IMG/VR virus record: IMGVR_UViG_3300038797_000031
Location: 1-33,276 of that record
Strand: one strand, 5' to 3'
DNA: 33,276 nt
Source of the DNA: a virus
Taxonomy: Duplodnaviria > Caudoviricetes
Shown here: piece by piece, positions 15,752 through 25,567 of the stretch
Layout of the letters: each line of letters starts with the position of its first letter
Numbering within the stretch: the stretch's first letter is position 1
Notes under the pieces: model-generated
The model's database searches: none
What the model was told of the DNA's origin: nothing
What the model saw: the letters and a program-made list of their open reading frames with translations, nothing else
Position numbers and translations under genes: made by a program

Positions 15752-15954
15752 GACTTGCCCTTCCAGTCGATCAGCATCTGGCGATACTTGGGAACCAGCA
15801 GAAAGATCTGCAGCACCATGTAGAGCGCGGTCAGCATGTAGGCGACCGCCGACCAATCGACGGCGCCCGTTGCACCTGTAGCGGCTACGCCGATCGCTGG
15901 CGATGCCTTCGCCAAGGCAATGGCAGTGTCTTGGGCGACCTGATTCGCGCTCAT
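15748..15954 (-). CDS. Holin (possible pinholin)
   Basis: 68-aa hydrophobic protein with a basic C-terminus, directly upstream of the endolysin. Confidence 0.75.
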   Translation of the reverse strand: MSANQVAQDTAIALAKASPAIGVAATGATGAVDWSAVAYMLTALYMVLQIFLLVPKYRQMLIDWKGKS

Positions 15955-16163
15955 CGCTGAACCTCTTTTTCAACAGTTGTTTGGCAAGGCACGCAGCGAG
16001 TGATGCCGCCCAGCGCCTGGCGCTTTTCCGGGATTGGGTTATCGCAGTCCACGCAGTGGGTCCGGCTCGGCCCGGACGGACGCTTGCAGGCGAGCTGGGC
16101 CTCAATGGCCTTGTCCCGCTGCAGCTGCTCAAGCGCCTGAGCGCGATCGAACCAGTCCACCAT
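15951..16163 (-). CDS. TraR/DksA-family C4 zinc-finger protein
   Basis: DWFDRA (DxxDxA), CVDC...IPEKRQ...CVPCQ. Confidence 0.9.
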   Translation of the reverse strand: MVDWFDRAQALEQLQRDKAIEAQLACKRPSGPSRTHCVDCDNPIPEKRQALGGITRCVPCQTTVEKEVQR

Positions 16164-16615
16164 CAGCTCAGCCCTTCGATTTCAGTTGAATCGAGGTACG
16201 GCACGCCGTTGATCTTCACGAAGTCCGGACTGGTGACGTCATACGGGATCTTGTGAGTGTTCTTGGCGGCGCCCTTTGGATCGATGCTGAGCAGGCTGGA
16301 GATGCGCAACTTGCAACCAAAGGCTTCGATGCGCAGTTCCTCTTCGCCGGCTTTGGCGAAGAACACCGAGTCGAACAGCGGCAGCTTGCGGAAACTGCCG
16401 GCAGTCTTCGCCGCCTCGATCAACAGGTTGAAGTTAGTGGTGTCCAGCTCCATTTCGCCTGCGGCCGCCACGTCGCCGTCGACGTGGCCGTTAGGTACGC
16501 CGCGTGTCTGCGCAACGGCCGTGTTGTCGGTGATGTCCAGGGTGCAGGCTTCGACGTGAATGGTCAGATCGCCCACGGTGATGTCGAAGTTCTTGCCGCC
16601 AATTTTTGCAGTCAT
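16163..16615 (-). CDS. Tail tube protein (DUF2597)
   Basis: HP1-type tube motifs (GVPNGHVDGDV, VTSPDFVKINGVPYL); follows the sheath gene. Confidence 0.88.
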   Translation of the reverse strand: MTAKIGGKNFDITVGDLTIHVEACTLDITDNTAVAQTRGVPNGHVDGDVAAAGEMELDTTNFNLLIEAAKTAGSFRKLPLFDSVFFAKAGEEELRIEAFGCKLRISSLLSIDPKGAAKNTHKIPYDVTSPDFVKINGVPYLDSTEIEGLS

Positions 16616-16621
16616 GCAGGG

Positions 16622-17731
16622 TTACTCCGCGATGGAAAGATCGAGCGCGATGTTCGCGGTCAGATCTTTCGGGCAGTTGAGGGGGCGAACGCTGATGTAC
16701 ACCTCGATCGCGGTTTTGCTCGTCCAATTCAGGACAATGGCGTCGTCTGCCGGCGTTTCGATTTCACCGGGGAACACCTGGCCAGCGAAGGTCGTGGACT
16801 TGGCCATCGCACGCAGCGGAGTCATCAGAAAGGTTTTGTTGCTGGCCATGCTGTTGGCGCTGCTGTTCAAGCGCCGATCACCCACACGACGGATCAGCAG
16901 CGGACGAACGCGGCGTGCGGCCTTGTCGACAATGCGCAGGTACTCGATCACCCGAAAATCGCTACCAGGAGTGTCGAGCATGTTGCCGTCGCCCCAGTAG
17001 ACGCCTTCGTAGTCCGCATAGGTCTGAGTGACCGAGAAGCGCGACTTGTCCAGTTCAGCACGCACGGCCGAGGTCAGCGGCACGCTTTCAGCGTCCACCG
17101 GCACCGGGCCGAGGCCCAGCACAGCACCCGTGGCCACGCGCATTGGACTGTCAGCAATGCTGACTTCGGCAGTGGCCAAGCGGCCGGCCAAGACGCCCAG
17201 GTCGTTGCCGTGGAGTTGAGGCACGCACAGCACGCGCGGCGCAGCCAGGCCTTCGGTGATTGCCTTCTGTTCAGCGAGATACTGCGACCAGCTCATGCCT
17301 GCTTGAATGCCGGCAGACGATGCCATCACGAAAGCGCGGCGACCGTAGGTGTTGCTCAGTCCGATCGCGGCTTCATGCATGTCGCCCAGCTCATCGCCGC
17401 TCGAAACCGGCGTACAGATCACGATCGCTTCGAAGGAGTAGTTCTGCTCCAGAGCGGTGGTCAGCGCGTCCTGCCAGGTCTTTTGCGCGACCAGGGGAAT
17501 CGCCAGGCACGCCCAGCGATCACCGCCGTTCAAGCGTGCGGCGGTCACCTGAGTTTTCAGGTCGCTGGCTGGAATGCCCAGCATCACGTCCAGATCGCTG
17601 TCGGTGTTTAGTGCGATCACCTGGCCCTGACTTTTGGGGCCGGCGCCGATGAAAAGGAAATAGCGCTCCACCTCAGTGACAGCGCCCTGACTGAGATTGA
17701 GATTGTTGACGCTGACTTTACCGAGTGCCAT
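16622..17731 (-). CDS. Tail sheath protein (DUF2586)
   Basis: VSVNNLNLSQG, IADSPMRVATG, YEGVYWGDG, IEYLRIVDKAARR motifs. Confidence 0.9.
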   Translation of the reverse strand: MALGKVSVNNLNLSQGAVTEVERYFLFIGAGPKSQGQVIALNTDSDLDVMLGIPASDLKTQVTAARLNGGDRWACLAIPLVAQKTWQDALTTALEQNYSFEAIVICTPVSSGDELGDMHEAAIGLSNTYGRRAFVMASSAGIQAGMSWSQYLAEQKAITEGLAAPRVLCVPQLHGNDLGVLAGRLATAEVSIADSPMRVATGAVLGLGPVPVDAESVPLTSAVRAELDKSRFSVTQTYADYEGVYWGDGNMLDTPGSDFRVIEYLRIVDKAARRVRPLLIRRVGDRRLNSSANSMASNKTFLMTPLRAMAKSTTFAGQVFPGEIETPADDAIVLNWTSKTAIEVYISVRPLNCPKDLTANIALDLSIAE

Positions 17732-17742
17732 GCAGTGCCTCG

Positions 17743-18423
17743 TTAGCGGGGTGAATTTAGGATTTGTTGCAGCACCAGGTTCACCAGCTCGCTGGTTTCT
17801 GATTCCGTGCCGGGGCCGAGGAACTGACGTTTTGGCAGGGTGATCTCCCAGCTTTGCGCACCAGTTGACTCGGATTTCTCATCGTCCAGGAGGCGGATCA
17901 GCAAACCCGCCTTGGCGTAATTCAAATGCTCCTGAATCCACGCCACAGACGGGCGTGTCAGGTTTTTCTTACCGGCCTGCCGGGTTTTGAACCCCAACCG
18001 GCGCAGGCGCTTTGCCTGCTTTTCCGTCGCGGCCAGACCTTCAGGAACCTTGTTCCACTGGCGCATCTGCGCGGCAGTGCGGCGCTCGGATACGCCGTTG
18101 TGTTGCTGGGAGGCAACCCAGCGGGTCAGCGCGTTGCGCCAGCCCAGCTCGGCCTCGTCAGCGTCCAACCGGGTGACCTCGAGCAGCTTGCCCAGGCCGG
18201 ACTCCATCTTCTTCTTGCCCTTCGACGACCCTTTGCGAGCCTCGAATGGCGAACCGTCCAGGTTCTGCTGATCGCGGATCCGCTGACGGCTTTTGCTGCG
18301 CACGCGCTTGCTGACGTTATTGAGCAAACGCCGGCGCAACTGCGGCGGAAGCTCCATCAGCGCAAGCTGTTTCTCCACGTCCAACATCCCGCGGATATCG
18401 CGCTCAAACGTGCTACGCGCCAC
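17743..18423 (-). CDS. Virion morphogenesis / tail completion protein (gpS-like)
   Basis: QQNLDGSPFEARK and LPKRQFLG motifs; GTG start at 18423 after GAGGTGG. Confidence 0.85.
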   Translation of the reverse strand: MARSTFERDIRGMLDVEKQLALMELPPQLRRRLLNNVSKRVRSKSRQRIRDQQNLDGSPFEARKGSSKGKKKMESGLGKLLEVTRLDADEAELGWRNALTRWVASQQHNGVSERRTAAQMRQWNKVPEGLAATEKQAKRLRRLGFKTRQAGKKNLTRPSVAWIQEHLNYAKAGLLIRLLDDEKSESTGAQSWEITLPKRQFLGPGTESETSELVNLVLQQILNSPR

Positions 18424-18856
18424 GGCTGGCCACCTCGCCTTTTTCCGCGACCCACAGCTCGAACGGCTTGAACGCGTAGAACTTGCCGAAGGCTTCAATC
18501 TCCCCGTCGTCGGCCTCGGAGAGGTATTGCGGTTCGCTGAACTGCAGCTTGATGTCCACGTCGGCCAGATCGTTGTCGAGCATCGTCACGTCGAACACCG
18601 GCGCCGGCAGACCATCACGGTCATCGTCGTTCGTCTCCAGCCAGCTACCGACCAGCGCCATCAGGCGAGCCGGGTTGTCGGCAAAGCGCTCAAGCACGAT
18701 CGTCGCGCCGTAGTTCATATCGCCCATGCGCATGCCGTCGACGTCGGGCTTCCAGATCAGCTCGAGGCTGACCTGGTCGGTCCAGCTGTCGAGCTGCTCG
18801 GGTTCGACCAGGCGGCGCTCAATCAGGTATGAGGTCAGGGCACGGAGCTTGATCAT
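18413..18856 (-). CDS. Tail completion protein (gpR-like)
   Basis: 147-aa acidic ORF at the P2 R position. Confidence 0.8.
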   Translation of the reverse strand: MIKLRALTSYLIERRLVEPEQLDSWTDQVSLELIWKPDVDGMRMGDMNYGATIVLERFADNPARLMALVGSWLETNDDDRDGLPAPVFDVTMLDNDLADVDIKLQFSEPQYLSEADDGEIEAFGKFYAFKPFELWVAEKGEVASRGA

Positions 18857-19341
18857 TGAATGAACTCGCCCAGGTAGTTCAGGCGAAATTGCGCCGGTGA
18901 CATGGTTTTTCGAACCGCTGCCAAATCAAGGTGGTGCATCTCGAAAGGCCACAGAAAGCGCTGATAGTGGTTTCCGTGGACCTCGATCAATCGCAGCAGC
19001 AGATCATTGCTCGGAGTGTCGCGGTCCGGATCCCGCTGTCGGCTAGCGGTAGTGGAGTAGTAAGCACCCGCGCGCAGCTGGGTGGTTTTCAGCCAATCGA
19101 ATTCGTCGTAGAACCAGACGGCGGTATCCGCATTGATCTCGTCTGGCACCGGATCACCATCACGCACCACGCATACGCCTACCAACTTGAAACGCAGGAA
19201 GTCATACAGCCCAGGCGAGCAGACAAACACGACTTGCTTGCCTTGAACGGCGATGTCGATGGCCATGCGGCGAAGCCGACTCGTTTTGCCAGTCATCCGA
19301 GGCGAGATTTCCAAGTACGCGATCTTCAATGGCTGGCTCAT
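18853..19341 (-). CDS. Small terminase-like P-loop ATPase (stand-alone ATPase domain, 162 aa)
   Basis: SPRMTGKT (Walker A), WFYDEF (Walker B), YYSTT (motif III-like), MSPAQFRLNYLGEF; ATGA overlaps at both ends. Confidence 0.75.
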   Translation of the reverse strand: MSQPLKIAYLEISPRMTGKTSRLRRMAIDIAVQGKQVVFVCSPGLYDFLRFKLVGVCVVRDGDPVPDEINADTAVWFYDEFDWLKTTQLRAGAYYSTTASRQRDPDRDTPSNDLLLRLIEVHGNHYQRFLWPFEMHHLDLAAVRKTMSPAQFRLNYLGEFIQ

Positions 19342-19799
19342 AACAGCGCCGCCGTGATGCGGCCACGGCCCTGCAGCGATCGCACGGCCTGCTGACTGAA
19401 CTCCAGAAACGTTTCCTTGCGCTCGGGGGCTTCCTTGCCCAAGTTCTCGGCACTTTCGCGACGTATGATCGAGGCGAACTCCGGCAGCAAGCTGGCCTTG
19501 GCGCGGCAATACACGGCGCGCTTGTACGTCTCAGCTTGAAAGGTGCGCTCCGGCAGGACGGTGGTGTCTGCAGATTCAACGCGTGACACTCCAGCGCCCT
19601 GCCAGCGCGCTTTTAAACTGGCCAGATCACTGTTGACCTGCGCCATGGCCGTAGCCAGGTTGATGACCAGCATCTCTACCAGGTGCTCCGCCGGCAGGCG
19701 GTAGCCCTTCTGGAACTCGGTCACGGAGAGGTCCGGCCAGAAGCCGTCGTTCTCGATCGCATGCTCCACAAAGGTGGTGGGTTTCCCGGAAAAGCTCAT
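19338..19799 (-). CDS. Head completion/stabilisation protein (gpL-like)
   Basis: NDGFWPDL and YKRAVYCRAKA motifs; start MSFSGK. Confidence 0.9.
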   Translation of the reverse strand: MSFSGKPTTFVEHAIENDGFWPDLSVTEFQKGYRLPAEHLVEMLVINLATAMAQVNSDLASLKARWQGAGVSRVESADTTVLPERTFQAETYKRAVYCRAKASLLPEFASIIRRESAENLGKEAPERKETFLEFSQQAVRSLQGRGRITAALL

Positions 19800-19896
19800 T
19801 GCTGGCCGCTCGAATAGGGCGGGGAGCCTGTTTTCAGTGGGACGGTCCATAAATGGGCGGCTCACTTCCACAGGTCCCCGCTGGGGGGGTAGTCGG

Positions 19897-20619
19897 TTAC
19901 TCGGAAGCCGGGTTAGCGGCCGCTTGTTTTTCCAAGGCCCTGCGGACCTCTTTGATGCGAGTGTTGTTACCCGCTGCCGCGTAGAGCTCCGTGGAGCGCT
20001 CGAGATGCTTGAGCGCGACGTCCCACTGCTTCGCCTCCATGGCGCGAATACCGATCAACTTGTGGTACTTGCTTGGGATCTGCTCCGTCAGTTGCCATTC
20101 GCCATCAACACGCGGCAACAGATCGGACAGGTAGGGCTCAGGGCTGCGCTGGGCGGTGTGTTCGGCGAGTGCCCAGTCATATACGGCGTCAGCAACAAAG
20201 GTCTGGATATCCCGGCGGAAGCGCTCCGGCATCTGCTGGCCCTGCTCCATCAGGAAGTCAGCCAGTTCCAGGGCGTCTTCGAACTGGGACGTGTCGAACA
20301 GCCAGACCATGACCTGCACAGCTACGCGGTTCGGGAAATTCAATCCCGATTCGCAGTAGCGCTGGACGTATTCCTGGTACTTGGGCAAAAGCTCATTGCG
20401 CTTGAGCAACTGCTTACTGGCCAAGTTGTTTAGGTCACTCAGGCGCGCCAGATCCACGTCCAATGCTGCTTCCTGCAGCATCAGGTTCTTGCGCGCATTA
20501 GCAGGACTGCTCAGCGCATCAGCTGGGGTGTAAGGCATAGCCGCGCTCGACTGCGCTGCGGCAACAGCGGTTACACCCATGGCCAAGGTGCGGCGCTTGT
20601 GCGCCAGGGCCAGGCTCAC
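19897..20619 (-). CDS. Terminase small (endonuclease) subunit (gpM-like)
   Basis: KRNELLPKY and VMVWLFD motifs; follows the capsid gene. Confidence 0.9.
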   Translation of the reverse strand: MSLALAHKRRTLAMGVTAVAAAQSSAAMPYTPADALSSPANARKNLMLQEAALDVDLARLSDLNNLASKQLLKRNELLPKYQEYVQRYCESGLNFPNRVAVQVMVWLFDTSQFEDALELADFLMEQGQQMPERFRRDIQTFVADAVYDWALAEHTAQRSPEPYLSDLLPRVDGEWQLTEQIPSKYHKLIGIRAMEAKQWDVALKHLERSTELYAAAGNNTRIKEVRRALEKQAAANPASE

Positions 20620-21635
20620 GCCGCGAGCTCCACGTTCTCGGTCAGTGCGATCTTTTCCAACTGCTCGATCACATAACCTTCGTTGCGGCTGTTGTAGTCC
20701 TCGACGCGGGAGCGTTTCGGGTTGTCGACCGTCTGCTTACGCCAGCTGGAGTCCTGGAAGTAGATCGACAGGTTGTCCCAACTGGTAACCAGCACGCCGT
20801 TGACCGGGAAAAACGGCACGCTGAAGCTCGGCAGACCGCCGTAGGTGGCGATCACCTGAGCATCTTCAATGCGTTCTTTTTCGGTCGGGACGTCGCCCTG
20901 TTTGGCGTACAGCTTGGCCTTGTCAGCGGCCAACAGGTCGGAGCCGATAATCGCGATCAGGTCGCCGCCGTCACGCAGGCGCTCGTCCACCATCTGTTTG
21001 GTGTCGTGCACCAGGGCATCGAGGTTTGCGTAGTCACCGTTCGGGCCGAGGGTGACTTTGCCGGCGACCTTGCCTTCCTTGAGCACCTGCTGCGGGGCCT
21101 GATCGCGCAGTTGCTGCAGCCAGCCTTTGTTGACGTCCTGCAACATCGGAAACAGCTCGATGTCGCTCTGATCGGCAGCATGCGTGCCGTGGAAGCCGAC
21201 CATGATGCGGTCCAGGGCGATCTGTTTCTGAACGGCTGCGGAGTATTTCTGGTGGAAGTCTGGGAACTTGGCCCAGGCATCGATTTTCGCGTACGGCAGA
21301 CCCACGTCGGATTCGGTGGAAGACAGCTCATACGTGGACTGATCCAGCGCCGACGCATCTTTGGCTTCGCGGTCTTTCGTCTTCGTATTGGTGCGACCGG
21401 TAACTGGGCCGGACACGCCGAGGAACACCTTTTGCCCTTTGATCTCGGTCACCGGAATGACGTTGATCCGCTGCAGGAAGTCCGACTTGGCCGTGATGGC
21501 CTCGTTCAGCTCCTGGGCAATGGTCGGCTCGACGCTGAACTGCTTCGTGGCGAGTTCAACGTCGTAGTTTTCAGCAATGGCGAGCTGCAGCTCCGCGTAC
21601 ATTTGGGCGCCGAAGGCACTCAGGGAATAGGCCAT
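20616..21635 (-). CDS. Major capsid protein, P2 family (gpN)
   Basis: ALDRIMVGFHG and LQDVNKGWLQ motifs. Confidence 0.96.
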   Translation of the reverse strand: MAYSLSAFGAQMYAELQLAIAENYDVELATKQFSVEPTIAQELNEAITAKSDFLQRINVIPVTEIKGQKVFLGVSGPVTGRTNTKTKDREAKDASALDQSTYELSSTESDVGLPYAKIDAWAKFPDFHQKYSAAVQKQIALDRIMVGFHGTHAADQSDIELFPMLQDVNKGWLQQLRDQAPQQVLKEGKVAGKVTLGPNGDYANLDALVHDTKQMVDERLRDGGDLIAIIGSDLLAADKAKLYAKQGDVPTEKERIEDAQVIATYGGLPSFSVPFFPVNGVLVTSWDNLSIYFQDSSWRKQTVDNPKRSRVEDYNSRNEGYVIEQLEKIALTENVELAA

Positions 21636-21636
21636 G

Positions 21637-22557
21637 TCAGAGCACCCGCTTTTTGACAGTGGTTACAGGACCCGCGTTGCGCGGCAACTGGCGACCGTTC
21701 GAGGTGTTCTGCAGCGCAGAGAATTGCTTCTGCAGCGCGTCCAGTTTCGCCAATACGGATTGATTGCCATTGGCCTTGCGGCGGAACTCGCGCTCCTCCT
21801 CGGCAGTGGCGACGATGTCGTCTACGGCCGTGCTGACATCATCGATCAGATCCTGATCGGGTTCGGGTGCATCTGCGGCGGCGGGCTCAATGACGGCTTG
21901 AAGGCCGGCAGCGACAACCAGCAGCTGCGCCACCAGGGCTGTCAAAGCCGTTGCTGTAGCTTCATCCATTGGGGGTTTGCTCTCTGTGTTGGGTGGAGTG
22001 GGTTCGGTGGGCAGCACGTCGGTGGCGAACCGCTTGAAAAAAGCAGTCAGGGCGTTGATTAATCCGCTCTCGCCGGTATTCGGGCTGTCATCCTGCAGGC
22101 GGCCAAGTTCGACCGAGGCCGCGTAATACGAGGCGCGGTTATTCTTGTGGGAGAAATAGAGTTCCTGAGTGCCTACGCTCGCGGGCTGGTCGGTTACGCC
22201 CATGCCGGTCAGGTAGGCTTTGCCCTTGCCTCGGAAGTCGGGGGTGATCTCGATGCTGGTGAACAGTTTCTGGCCCTGGTCATTCAGGTAGAGCAGACGA
22301 TCGTTAGGCTTCAATTGCGCTTCCAGCGCCACTTCGCCCGGTTCCAGATCTTCGGCTTCTTCCACGAGGCGGACGGCGTAAACGGTGCCGTGGGAACCAG
22401 GCCAGCGCTCGTGATCGCACCAGATCACTGCCGTGTAAAAGGATGGCTTGTAGGTTTCAGCGATATCGCGCAGTTCCTGGGGAAGGATCACTCGGCCATC
22501 AACGGTCGCGCCGCTGGTGGCGACACGTTTCCAGAACGAAACAAGGGAACGGGGCAT
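21637..22557 (-). CDS. Capsid scaffolding protein (gpO)
   Basis: VATSGATVDGR, FTSIEI, YLTGMGVTDQPASVGT motifs. Confidence 0.94.
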   Translation of the reverse strand: MPRSLVSFWKRVATSGATVDGRVILPQELRDIAETYKPSFYTAVIWCDHERWPGSHGTVYAVRLVEEAEDLEPGEVALEAQLKPNDRLLYLNDQGQKLFTSIEITPDFRGKGKAYLTGMGVTDQPASVGTQELYFSHKNNRASYYAASVELGRLQDDSPNTGESGLINALTAFFKRFATDVLPTEPTPPNTESKPPMDEATATALTALVAQLLVVAAGLQAVIEPAAADAPEPDQDLIDDVSTAVDDIVATAEEEREFRRKANGNQSVLAKLDALQKQFSALQNTSNGRQLPRNAGPVTTVKKRVL

Positions 22558-22593
22558 GGGGATAACTGCGCTCAATCGGTGATTTGAGCCGCC

Positions 22594-22719: not shown

Positions 22720-24777
22720 ATGTACTACTCGACCGAAGTTAAAGAAGCCGCCAAACGCCTTTTTCTGCGCCGCTGTAAGGCCAAGGAAATTCAGGCGCAA
22801 CTCAACCTGCCCAACATCCGGATCGTCTACTACTGGATCCGCCAGGGTGGATGGGAGGACATGCTGTCGGACGAGGAGCCGCTGACCGCTGTTGGCCGGC
22901 GTATCACGTTGCTCCTGGACAAGGTCGGCAGCCTGTCCAAGGACGATTTAAACGAACTCGACCGGCTGACCGCCGTGCGCGAACGACTGCTAAAGCAAGC
23001 GGCCAAACCGGCGCCGGCGGCGGCATCGATCGGAGACGATCCGGGCGATTCCTCGGAACCTCGCCAGCGACCGCGTGGCGAACGTTCCGGCCGTGGTGAA
23101 GGCGGCGGCAAGAAGAAAGAGAAGAAGGCCAAGAACGACATCAGCGGGCTGACCGAAGTCGACTTCCTGGATAAGTTCATCAGCAAAATGTACCGCTACC
23201 AGCAGGAGCTGTTCGCGGCCAAACAGAACCCGCTGACCTGCCGAATCCGCAACATTCTCAAAAGTCGGCAGGTGGGCCTGACCTACTACTTCGCCGGCGA
23301 AGCGTTCATGGACGCGGTGTTGAGTGGCGACAACCAGGTGTTCCTGTCGGCCAGCCGATCGCAGTCCGAGATCTTCCGCAGCTACATCATCCAGTTCGGA
23401 AAGCAGTGGTTCGACATCGAGCTGACTGGCAACCCGATCGTGCTGAGCAACGGCGCCGAACTGCGCTTTCTCAGCACCAACAGCAGCACCGCCCAGGGCT
23501 ACCACGGTCACGTCTACGTCGACGAATATTTCTGGATCCGCGACTTCGAAAAACTAAGCACCGTGGCCAGCGCCATGGGCACCCACAAGAAATGGCGCAA
23601 GACCTATTTCTCGACGCCCAGCGCGGTGTCGCACCAGGCCTACCCGTTCTGGACCGGCGAAGAATTCCGCAACAGCAAGCGTGGAAAAAAGGCCGGCGGC
23701 ACTTGGCCGATCGAGGCGGCGTACACCCAAGGTGCGCTGTGTCCGGACGGCCAATGGCGCAAGACCATCACTATTCAAGATGCGATCGACGGCGGCTGCG
23801 ATCTGTTCGACCTCGAGCAGCTGCAGCTGGAGTACGACGAGGACAAGTTTCAGCAGCTCTTCTACTGCAAGTTCATCGACAGCACACAGAGCGCGTTCGG
23901 CCTCAAGGATCTGGAGCGGTGCTACTCCGACCTGTCGTTGTGGGAGGACTACAAGCCCGACGAGGAACGTCCGTACGGCAACAGCCCGGTCTGGCTGGGC
24001 TACGACCCGAGCCGGACTCGCGACGACGCGACGTGCGTTGTCATCGCCCCGCCGCTCGAGCCAGGCGCGAAGTTCCGGATCTTGGAGAAGCACAGCTGGC
24101 GTGGCCATTCGTTCACCTACCAGGCCGCCCAGGTCAAGAAGCTGACCGAGCGCTTCAACGTCCAGCACATCGGTATCGATGTCACCGGCGTGGGTTACGG
24201 CGTGTTCGACCTGGTGCGCGACTTCTACGCCAAAGCAACGCCGATTCATTACAGCCTCGAGGCGAAAAACGCCCTGGTGCTCAAGGCCCAGGACACGATC
24301 CAAGGCAGCCGCATCGAGTGGGATGCCGGATGGACCGATATCGCCCAGGCGTTCCTGACCATCAAGCGAGGCACCACCAACAGCGGCCAAGTCACCTACA
24401 GCGCTTCGCGCACCGACGCGACCGGCCACGCCGATATCGCTTGGGCGGTCATGCACGCCCTGGCCAACGAACCTTTGAACACCAACAAGCGGCGTCGTAG
24501 CCGCTACGTCACGAGTGGAAACAATGCCCAAGCATCGACGCAGAAATCGCCCGGTCAACCAGCAGGCGCAACAGCAGCAGCCCATGCGGGCGTTTACGTT
24601 CGGCGAACCCGAGCAGGTGCTGTCGGGCAACATCGGCGAGTACCTGGGGGTGTTCCTCAGCGACGACGGCGAGATCTACAAGCCGCCGGTGTCGCGTCCC
24701 GGCCTGGCGAAACTGTTGCGCGCCAATGCGCACCACGGCGCAATCCCGAAGTTCAAGCGCAACCTGCTGCTGCGTGA
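22720..24777 (+). CDS. Terminase large (ATPase) subunit (gpP)
   Basis: N-terminal HTH, KSRQVGLT, VYVDEY, YFSTP, GYDPSRTRD, GHADIAWA motifs. Confidence 0.96.
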   Translation: MYYSTEVKEAAKRLFLRRCKAKEIQAQLNLPNIRIVYYWIRQGGWEDMLSDEEPLTAVGRRITLLLDKVGSLSKDDLNELDRLTAVRERLLKQAAKPAPAAASIGDDPGDSSEPRQRPRGERSGRGEGGGKKKEKKAKNDISGLTEVDFLDKFISKMYRYQQELFAAKQNPLTCRIRNILKSRQVGLTYYFAGEAFMDAVLSGDNQVFLSASRSQSEIFRSYIIQFGKQWFDIELTGNPIVLSNGAELRFLSTNSSTAQGYHGHVYVDEYFWIRDFEKLSTVASAMGTHKKWRKTYFSTPSAVSHQAYPFWTGEEFRNSKRGKKAGGTWPIEAAYTQGALCPDGQWRKTITIQDAIDGGCDLFDLEQLQLEYDEDKFQQLFYCKFIDSTQSAFGLKDLERCYSDLSLWEDYKPDEERPYGNSPVWLGYDPSRTRDDATCVVIAPPLEPGAKFRILEKHSWRGHSFTYQAAQVKKLTERFNVQHIGIDVTGVGYGVFDLVRDFYAKATPIHYSLEAKNALVLKAQDTIQGSRIEWDAGWTDIAQAFLTIKRGTTNSGQVTYSASRTDATGHADIAWAVMHALANEPLNTNKRRRSRYVTSGNNAQASTQKSPGQPAGATAAAHAGVYVRRTRAGAVGQHRRVPGGVPQRRRRDLQAAGVASRPGETVARQCAPRRNPEVQAQPAAA

Positions 24778-25567
24778 GCTGGTTCCCTCGGCCGGCTGCA
24801 GCGCCCGAACGATGGGCTGCGCGGGGCTGGATTACATGGTGTTTGGCGAAGCGTTCTTCTATCGCGACACCAACGCCTTCGGCCAAGTCCTGGAGCTGCA
24901 GCACCTGGCAGCGATCAACATGCGGATCAAGGTCGACGGTGGCTTCCGGATGCTGCTGCCCGACAACAAGTTCATGGACTTCGACCAGGACGAGATCGAG
25001 CACGTGCTCGACTATGACGTGGAACAGAACATCTACGGAGTGCCGGACTACCTGGGCGGCATGCAGGCGCTGCTGCTCAACGAAGCCGCCACGTTGTTCC
25101 GCCGGCGTTACTACAGCAACGGCGCCCACGCCGGCTACATCTTCTACACCAACGACCCGGACCTGACCGAGGAGGACGAAGACAACCTGCGCGCGCAGAT
25201 CAGCTCCAGCAAGGGCGTGGGCAACTTCCGCTCGATGTTCGTGAACATCCCGAACGGCAAAGAGAACGCGATCCAGATCATCCCCGTAGGCGACTTCCAA
25301 GCCAAAGACGAGTTGGAGAAGGTGAAGAACATCACCCGCAACGACGTGATCGCCGCTTGGCGAATGAACCCAGCGCTCGCCGGCATCATTCCGGAGAACA
25401 GCGGTGGTTTTGGCGACATCGAAAAGATTGACCGGGTCTACACCAGCAACGAGATCCGGCCGATCTGTCAGCTGTTCAACCAAGTCAATGACACCTTACG
25501 GCCAGACAGGCGAATCAACTGGAGAGAAGCGGATATTCCAGTTGATCCCACTGCATCCGGTGCTTAG
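24524..25567 (+). CDS. Portal protein (gpQ, PBSX family)
   Basis: IYGVPDYLG, FRRRYYSNGAHAG, GGFGDIEK motifs; ATG 24524 (alternative GTG 24515). Confidence 0.95.
   Translation: MPKHRRRNRPVNQQAQQQQPMRAFTFGEPEQVLSGNIGEYLGVFLSDDGEIYKPPVSRPGLAKLLRANAHHGAIPKFKRNLLLRELVPSAGCSARTMGCAGLDYMVFGEAFFYRDTNAFGQVLELQHLAAINMRIKVDGGFRMLLPDNKFMDFDQDEIEHVLDYDVEQNIYGVPDYLGGMQALLLNEAATLFRRRYYSNGAHAGYIFYTNDPDLTEEDEDNLRAQISSSKGVGNFRSMFVNIPNGKENAIQIIPVGDFQAKDELEKVKNITRNDVIAAWRMNPALAGIIPENSGGFGDIEKIDRVYTSNEIRPICQLFNQVNDTLRPDRRINWREADIPVDPTASGA

Follow-up and report, generated by a model that had tools for sequence, protein, structure and literature searches.

A stand-alone ATPase of very probable terminase origin, encoded by an optional single-gene insertion among the late genes of P2-like Pseudomonas phages

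Why should a phage that already encodes a complete large terminase subunit (TerL) carry, among the genes for head and tail completion, a second and far smaller protein with the ATPase motifs of that enzyme? The question is raised by a locus in IMG/VR record IMGVR_UViG_3300038797_000031, a complete 33,276-bp viral record (CheckV 100%) of a P2/HP1-like phage that belongs to the P2-like Pseudomonas phages. The entire record was analyzed and is referred to here as the window. An earlier note made from the sequence had singled out an open reading frame (ORF) of 162 codons, located between the head completion gene gpL and the tail completion gene gpR, as a 'mini-terminase' ATPase. The product of the ORF is designated P0001. 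The joint identity of the ORF as a terminase-derived stand-alone ATPase and as an optional gene can be assigned with high confidence, whereas the role of the protein is addressed more tentatively below. The gene, its junctions and the principal motifs of its product are as follows.

18853..19341, minus strand: gene for the stand-alone TerL-like ATPase P0001, 162 residues, stop codon included (stop-free translation)
19338..19871, minus strand: head completion gene gpL, immediately upstream of the ORF (PF05926, E 4.4e-30; phrog_71)
19338..19341, minus strand: ATGA junction at which the gpL stop codon TGA overlaps the ORF start codon ATG, TTATGAGCC (read in the sequence)
18853..18856, minus strand: ATGA junction at which the ORF stop codon TGA overlaps the gpR start codon ATG, CAATGATCAAG (read in the sequence)
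18413..18856, minus strand: tail completion gene gpR, immediately downstream of the ORF (PF06891, E 2.5e-25; phrog_65)
19282..19305, minus strand: Walker A motif or P-loop SPRMTGKT, residues 13-20 (aligned to the TerL Walker A motif with hhalign)
19096..19119, minus strand: Walker B strand VWFYDEFD, residues 75-82 (aligned to TerL 'YVDEYFW' and 'YIDECAF')
19048..19062, minus strand: C-motif-like YYSTT, residues 94-98 (aligned to TerL 'YFSTPS' and 'ITTTPNG')
18946..18975, minus strand: core of the predicted two-fold self-interface, residues 123-132, including conserved R128 (complex prediction)
18862..18888, minus strand: C-terminal lid motif FRLNYLGEF, residues 152-160 (aligned to TerL 'FQQLFYCKF' and 'FRQEHTAAF')

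The ORF is a real gene that is conserved and under purifying selection. Its translation is free of stop codons and contains, in the order expected of a TerL ATPase domain, every motif that the earlier note had quoted: the Walker A sequence, a hydrophobic strand VVFVC at residues 37-41, WFYDEF at residues 76-81, YYSTT, and the C-terminal stretch MSPAQFRLNYLGEF at residues 147-160. The overlaps with gpL and gpR that had been described at the two ends of the gene also were recovered. Homologs of P0001 form 110 clusters with 38-55% identity and lengths of ~160 residues, and are derived nearly exclusively from Pseudomonas. The median pairwise ratio of nonsynonymous to synonymous substitution rates (dN/dS) was 0.28 for the ORF compared to 0.40 for gpR and 0.35 for gpS in 80 locus pairs. 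As dS was near saturation, the ratio denotes purifying selection and nothing more, which is sufficient to bear out the earlier description of the gene as maintained. The embedding of the gene in the late operon likewise agrees with a promoter and terminator scan in which no promoter-like site was detected around the ORF and no terminator was detected at the ORF. Judged by its position in the operon, the ORF probably is expressed late together with its neighbors. The G+C content of the ORF (0.56-0.59) is marginally below that of the flanks (0.60-0.64).

Conservation was assessed in a 50-sequence alignment of the family (A1) and in a 99-sequence alignment of the widened family (A2). Residues G18, K19, T20, R22, D79, F81, Y95, R103, D113, L115, L118, R153 and G158 are invariant in A1, and positions that are conserved to at least 90% include S13, R15, E80, R128 and E159. 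The Walker A motif possesses arginine at its third position as does the TerL motif 'SRQxGKT', and S13, R15, G18, K19 and T20 are invariant or nearly so in both alignments. In A1, the Walker B residue D79 is accompanied by the presumed catalytic residue E80, which is retained in at least 90% of sequences, Y94 and Y95 of the YYSTT motif are conserved, and F152, L157, E159 and F160 of the lid motif reach at least 90% alongside the invariant R153 and G158. The catalytic residues are kept across the 99 diverse members in A2. From the conserved Walker A lysine, Walker B Asp-Glu pair and C-motif, the protein would be expected to exhibit ATPase activity.

The fold and the profile comparisons indicate that P0001 is very probably a trimmed TerL-type ATPase domain of the ASCE class, with thymidine kinase (TK) as the runner-up. 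The AlphaFold2 model of P0001 has a mean pLDDT of 94.7 and a pTM of 0.89, and three fold searches concur in placing TerL ATPase domains first. The comparison with terminase ATPases that the earlier note had proposed was performed with Foldseek: the highest query-normalized TM-scores in the Protein Data Bank (PDB) were those of the TerL ATPase domains of P74-26 (0.62) and T4 gp17 (0.60), with E-values that were marginal only. In a structure search of the ESM Atlas, Terminase_6N clusters occupied eight of ten rows with TM-scores of 0.70-0.73 over 144-147 residues. The TerL ATPase fold, including the lid, is present in P0001 as is the TerL order of motifs, namely Walker A with the P-loop arginine, Walker B Asp-Glu, and the C motif. 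Profile comparisons were made with an alignment of 12 TerL ATPase domains drawn from the window, five genomes, T4, Cygsa01 and a 162-kb contig. With A1 the local hhalign score was 27.2 (P 0.002), a value that none of 150 column shuffles attained (maximum 18.8). With A2 the probability rose to 82.9% (P 9.2e-6) over 166 columns, and the score was not reached in any of 100 column shuffles. The Walker A, Walker B and C-motif sequences and the terminal F-R-x-x-x-L-G-E-F sequence were in register with their TerL counterparts in the profile-profile alignment. By comparison, a control alignment of 15 thymidine kinases yielded 29.6% with A2 (P 5.7e-4). Among family members, P0356 (179 residues) matches phrog_2 'terminase large subunit' across residues 7-178 (E 1.4e-11), and four of the 99 members of the wider family touch Terminase_6N with a best E-value of 8.6e-5.

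Two results run counter to this assignment. P0001 itself fell below threshold in the Pfam, PHROG, NCBIfam and PADLOC models without a single match to a terminase model, and A1 alone aligned to TerL with an hhalign probability of just 14%. Moreover, single-sequence comparisons with hhalign were too weak to decide: P-values were 0.16-0.34 for the resident TerL and 2.4e-4 to 0.6 for single TerL domains, compared to 0.044 with A1 and 0.0011 with A2 for T4 tk. TerL is separated from TK solely by the comparison of alignment with alignment. TK1-like thymidine kinases share with P0001 an ASCE P-loop alpha/beta domain and a similar size. Only 112-129 residues align, however, and thymidine kinases of the TK1 type are defined by a C-terminal zinc-binding lasso with paired cysteines. 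This domain is lacking in P0001, which possesses isolated cysteines at positions 41 and 57 only, no CxxC sequence, and no Pfam TK match. Thymidine kinase models were touched weakly in the wider family and over the N-terminal half only. TerL is ahead of TK in both the profile and the fold comparisons.

Certain other leads were set aside. Three homolog clusters (P0008, P0055 and P0057) bear the source label 'zonular occludens toxin', for which no Zot model match was recorded among the top 25 Pfam families listed for 50 and 99 members. Sequence-profile searches of the PDB with A1 and A2 produced nothing significant, and a Cas6f row that appeared with A1 (E 0.0037) receded with A2 (E 0.42) and was taken as a chance match. 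PADLOC assigned P0001 to no family. The best PADLOC match among 50 members was mad8 (E 0.0013, in four members), which was not significant.

P0001 and the TerL ATPase domain (Terminase_6N; D6E 5oe8, P74-26 4zni, Sf6 4idh, HK97 6z6d, T4 gp17 2o0h) have the same order of motifs and have in common the lid motif F-R/Q-x-x-x-x-x-E/K-F, but P0001 is ~80 residues shorter than this domain. It terminates at residue 162, just beyond the lid motif, and has no RNase H-like nuclease domain, no upstream adenine-binding segment, no extensions that bind the small terminase subunit (TerS) or the portal, and nothing that corresponds to the 160 residues by which the resident TerL is extended at its N terminus. 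These features are consistent with the earlier portrayal of the protein as a stand-alone 'mini-terminase' ATPase that lacks a nuclease domain. Nor is the gene a duplicate of the resident TerL gene, as the note had argued: the Walker A motif of the latter reads KSRQVGLT, unlike SPRMTGKT in P0001, and the hhalign P-values with the resident domain alone are those given above. TerL is a universal and essential packaging protein that assembles as a ring, and the resident copy is complete. P0001, in contrast, is optional and is predicted to form a symmetric dimer.

The optional nature of the gene was apparent from its relatives. The ORF is a presence/absence polymorphism that corresponds to a clean insertion of one gene at an (A/G)TGA junction. 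In the nearest relatives by gpL (80 viral contigs, 73-99% identity), gpR starts 0-12 nucleotides after gpL in every case, and no homolog of the ORF was found within 8 kb in any of the 80. As these 80 phages lack the ORF and have TerL homologs that are 84-99% identical to the resident TerL, the ORF is not needed for packaging. The closest comparison is provided by contig L012, in which gpL is 98.9% identical to that of the window and the ORF is lacking. Here the gpL/gpR junction is GTGA and reads CTGCTGTGATCAAGCTC, whereas the window at the same spot reads CTGTTATGAGCC...CAATGATCAAGCTC. Thus, the two differ by exactly one 486-bp gene that is enclosed by two (A/G)TGA overlaps. The gpR protein of the window is 76.7% identical to that of L012, yet 81-83% identical to gpR proteins of phages that carry the ORF. 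Because gpL is nearly identical to that of L012 and gpR is closer to that of the carriers, a recombination boundary coincides with the cassette. The segment as a whole (window 18413-19871 compared to L012 8001-8968) is mosaic, with gpR and gpS 81-88% identical to those of other carriers.

Homologs of the ORF were located in 63 loci. The gpL-ORF-gpR layout of the window is found in 18 of these, a further 44 from phiCTX/P2-like prophages have the gene in the lysis cassette, and the last is a 162-kb phage contig. The lysis-cassette layouts comprise endolysin-ORF-(small ORF)-Rz, endolysin-small ORF-ORF-Rz, and a position directly before gpR. The small ORF, which encodes 68 residues (phrog_10352; L005 6474-6680 and equivalents), adjoins the ATPase gene and swaps sides between phiCTX-like lineages. 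The frequency of the gene was examined in 80 contigs, those whose gpR is most similar to that of L005; 70 of them include both endolysin and gpR. Twelve of the 70 carry the ORF, with endolysin-to-gpR gaps of 1171-1183 nucleotides, although this fraction may be an overestimate as the sample was centered on a carrier. The ORF is absent from 57 others with gaps of 682-707 nucleotides, and one more locus has a gap of 49 nucleotides; the ORF also was not seen in any of the ten incomplete loci. The difference within near-identical pairs, for example L147 and L148, is 479 nucleotides. The patchiness that the earlier note had suggested should be examined is evident from these two surveys, and the gene is not universal in either lineage. 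A universal gene essential for assembly, which the note had named as a finding that would refute the decoy role, thus was not what was observed. In six phiCTX-like loci (L208, L215, L218, L219, L221 and L223) gpR follows gpX, and nothing between the two matches the endolysin or Rz of L005; these loci may have a different lysis cassette or none at this location. In the gene tree the two prophage lineages remain separate, with two changes of lineage label compared to a mean of 12.8 after shuffling, and the window copy is on a long unresolved branch with a best identity of 54%. This tree gave no sign of horizontal shuttling of the ORF from one lineage to the other. Judged by its phylogeny, the ORF would be long established in each of them and frequently lost, and would not owe its distribution to recent exchange.

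In an exhaustive search with hidden Markov models, the family grew to 367 clusters, defined at 50% identity. Lengths in the best 150 of the 367 clusters range from 68 to 282 residues. Fused forms were not found among these 150 clusters or in a search restricted to proteins of 285-2000 residues, which returned no relative and is weak evidence by the tool's own note. A single match, which was partial, was recovered from 50,697 isolated phage genome records. This match is in the 166-kb lytic Pseudomonas phage Cygsa01 and aligns with the family at an hhalign probability of 99.5% over residues 1-122. The Cygsa01 member (gene 35; L011 4001-4549) has DD instead of DE at the Walker B motif, differs in the C-terminal third, and is encoded directly upstream of sliding-clamp and clamp-loader genes. 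Distant members have 23-35% identity and are situated in P2-like lysis cassettes (L290, L293 and L294, of which L294 has a different endolysin family), in a baseplate/head-closure region (L297), in a region of homing endonucleases (L301), near a DNA polymerase gene (L298), near ligase, thioredoxin and exonuclease genes (L299), after DNA polymerase and UvsX-like genes in that order (L300), and in a gp33/gp59/gp32-like module (L303). As distant members reside in replication and recombination modules of lytic phages, the family does not imply a packaging-specific role. The P0001 family is large and structurally clear, and is without a name in Pfam, PHROG or NCBIfam. No description of the family was found in the literature searched, although the lists of vs.8 homologs in the supplements of PMC13601566, which lay outside the material covered, might include members.

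Self-association of P0001 was explored by complex prediction. Four copies gave a score of 0.51 compared to 0.19 for the best of three controls. The calibration mark is reached by 20 of 30 proteins solved as one-chain pairs and by one of 23 solved as single chains, counts that are only rough here as a custom alignment and four copies were used. The prediction runs share at least 54% of contacts, and the pLDDT of the partner is at least 84. In the predicted interface, the strands at residues 123-134 are antiparallel with residue 128 facing 128 and residue 124 facing 130, and residues 124-125 of one copy contact P-loop residues 13 and 17 of the other. The interface includes the conserved residues R103, R128, R153, L157 and E159. 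The models suggest that the protein forms a dimer in which R128 could act in trans on the nucleotide of the neighboring subunit.

The nearest described protein is vs.8 of phage T4. In a recent study, TerL ATPase domains alone are reported to activate EcAvs2, and the uncharacterized terminase-ATPase-like protein vs.8 of T4 is toxic in combination with EcAvs2, which it activates (Evans et al., 2026; PMC13601566). The same study raises the possibility that such proteins are anti-defense factors that have turned into triggers (PMC13601566). As described there, vs.8 resembles P0001 in its small size, its stand-alone form and its Walker A and B motifs, in its similarity in sequence and structure to the TerL ATPase domain, and in being confined to some phage lineages. 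P0001 is a protein of the vs.8 type in this broad sense. A2 aligned with vs.8 at an hhalign probability of 89% (P 2.2e-6) over 99 columns that span the Walker A to C-motif region, whereas A1 gave 14.7% over 30 columns that cover the P-loop only. BLASTP of the Cygsa01 member against vs.8 returned an E-value of 0.17 with no similarity beyond the P-loop. The two proteins differ in other respects: vs.8 has 219 residues, of which ~85 form an additional N-terminal segment, and its alignment does not extend to the C-terminal lid of P0001; it is encoded in the early region of a lytic phage whereas P0001 is a late-operon product of a P2-like temperate phage; and activation of Avs2 is reported for vs.8 only. 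By these comparisons the P0001 family and vs.8 would be distant cousins at most. For the Ksap2 protein of phage Bas60, Bechon et al. (2024; PMC11564622) describe a weak similarity to the ATPase domain of D6E TerL. Ksap2 is not reported to carry Walker motifs, and its structural likeness to TerL is weaker than that of P0001. The designation of the locus as an undescribed system in the earlier note was overstated, as a single gene is involved and the comparable vs.8 class was in print in 2026.

What might such a protein do? The earlier note had proposed a decoy against Avs-type sensors, a dominant-negative inhibitor of rival or satellite packaging, or a helper in the termination of packaging, roles that drew no support from the present analysis. 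In the favored explanation, P2-like Pseudomonas prophages carry the P0001 gene optionally, as a single-gene insertion in the late operon. The protein would self-associate, bind ATP and hydrolyze it, and would be an accessory in the conflict between phage and host, where it would show a terminase-ATPase surface to proteins that recognize this fold. Terminase sensors of the Avs1-3/Upx type would be the single most likely class of partner, speculative as this is, and the outcome would be either titration of the sensor or sensing of P0001 itself. The conflict role is proposed because Avs2, Avs3 and Upx read precisely this fold and this ATP site, because the gene comes and goes between near-identical prophages, and because the nearest described proteins are Avs2 ligands. 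The explanation as a whole, which combines a stand-alone TerL-ATPase look-alike, an optional cassette and a conflict accessory, is offered tentatively, and the conflict or mimicry role taken by itself is possible but somewhat doubtful. A number of points weigh against it. The precedent of vs.8 is activation and not inhibition of Avs2, which by analogy would cut against a simple decoy. The strict conservation of catalytic residues may suit an enzyme better than a passive decoy. The dN/dS values of the ORF are ordinary, and positive selection of the kind that denotes an arms race was not seen in the 80 locus pairs. The predicted dimer has two-fold symmetry, in contrast to TerL with its head-to-tail ring. 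Replication, recombination or nucleotide-metabolism modules account for five of the seven lytic-phage or uncharacterized contexts of the family (Cygsa01/L295, L298, L299, L300 and L303). Finally, no link of P0001 to any immune sensor emerged in the analysis, in which PADLOC was without a significant match.

These replication and recombination contexts, with the clamp and clamp loader of Cygsa01, the polymerase of L298 and the L299, L300 and L303 modules, fit a different proposal in which P0001 is an accessory ATPase of DNA or nucleotide metabolism, whether a helper in recombination, repair or replication or a nucleotide-processing enzyme, that has no connection to packaging or immunity and is parked in a permissive slot of the late operon. 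The retention of catalytic residues in the 99 diverse members also is in keeping with this proposal, which nevertheless is rather unlikely. Small accessory genes of all kinds are dispersed in the early and replication regions of T4-like phages, and the replication-module context of distant members is weak evidence for this reason. In 62 of 63 prophage loci the gene is instead in the late or lysis region away from replication genes, and gain and loss between near-identical prophages would be odd for a metabolic helper. The absence of the zinc-binding lasso and cysteine pairs of TK1-type kinases and the higher scores of TerL than of TK in profile and fold comparisons point in the same direction.

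Less probable again is modulation of packaging, either by a terminase or portal helper that functions in termination or release, or by a dominant-negative poison of the terminase of a rival phage or satellite. P0001 is TerL-like along its whole length including the lid, its gene presumably is co-transcribed with head- and tail-completion genes as judged by operon position, and it is exactly at the gpL/gpR junction in the 18 loci of the lineage of the window. Against this stand the 80 of 80 nearest relatives that have a near-identical to closely similar TerL (84-99%) and no ORF, the predicted self-interface, which is that of a symmetric dimer and not a ring contact, and the absence of two parts, namely a counterpart of residues 1-160, which extend the resident TerL at its N terminus, and the C-terminal domain. 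It is these parts of TerL that usually carry the TerS and portal contacts in lambda, T4 and P22. A lysis-cassette accessory, for example a regulator of lysis timing, is very unlikely. The idea derives from the phiCTX-like prophages, which always carry the gene between endolysin and Rz/gpR despite a change of endolysin family (phrog_435 in L294, phrog_1224 in others); the slot between endolysin and Rz presumably is the one that P2 gives to the non-essential lysA gene. The sequence shows no sign of a transmembrane segment or signal peptide, however, distant members are in non-lysis contexts, and in the lineage of the window the lysis genes follow the tail tube gene while the ATPase gene still is at the gpL/gpR junction. 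The remaining probability falls to something else altogether.

The other structural genes of the window that were assigned by family scans have the arrangement below.

24515-25567, plus strand: portal
22720-24777, plus strand: resident TerL, complete (Terminase_6N and 6C)
21637-22575, minus strand: scaffold gpO
20616-21635, minus strand: major capsid protein
19897-20619, minus strand: TerS gpM
17743-18498, minus strand: gpS
16622-17731, minus strand: sheath
16163-16615, minus strand: tube

The TerL ORF (685 residues) extends 263 nucleotides beyond the start of the portal ORF in a different frame (window 24515-24777), and its last ~90 residues are of low complexity and outside the matches to terminase models. 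TerL lengths in relatives are 625-745 residues, mostly 678-689. As relatives keep this length, the overlap with the portal gene is not a local sequencing error. A 70-residue DksA/TraR-type zinc-finger protein (PF01258, phrog_54) is encoded on the minus strand at 15951-16163, between the tail tube and lysis genes. The lysis cassette in the lineage of the window is located after the tail tube gene instead of between gpL and gpR.

The terminase-sensing receptors Avs1-3 and Upx are among the broadest of bacterial defenses. Why some phages carry additional terminase-ATPase-like proteins that are visible to these receptors is a question that was raised in print in 2026. Near-identical P2-like prophages of culturable Pseudomonas that are distinguished by the presence of this single gene at a known junction are a natural experiment that bears on it: comparison of carriers with their gene-free counterparts could reveal directly whether the look-alike protects the phage, betrays it, or has an unrelated role, for example in DNA metabolism. 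A model of the family together with a functional label would improve phage annotation broadly. On the widest view, which is improbable at present, the family, with P0001 as its founding example, would constitute widespread mimics of the terminase ATPase, encoded in tailed phages by swappable one-gene cassettes, that blunt or divert Avs1-3 and Upx sensors. If so, these proteins would represent a counter-defense against the most conserved trigger of bacterial NLR-like immunity, and the presence/absence polymorphism in P2-like prophages would be the record of an arms race.

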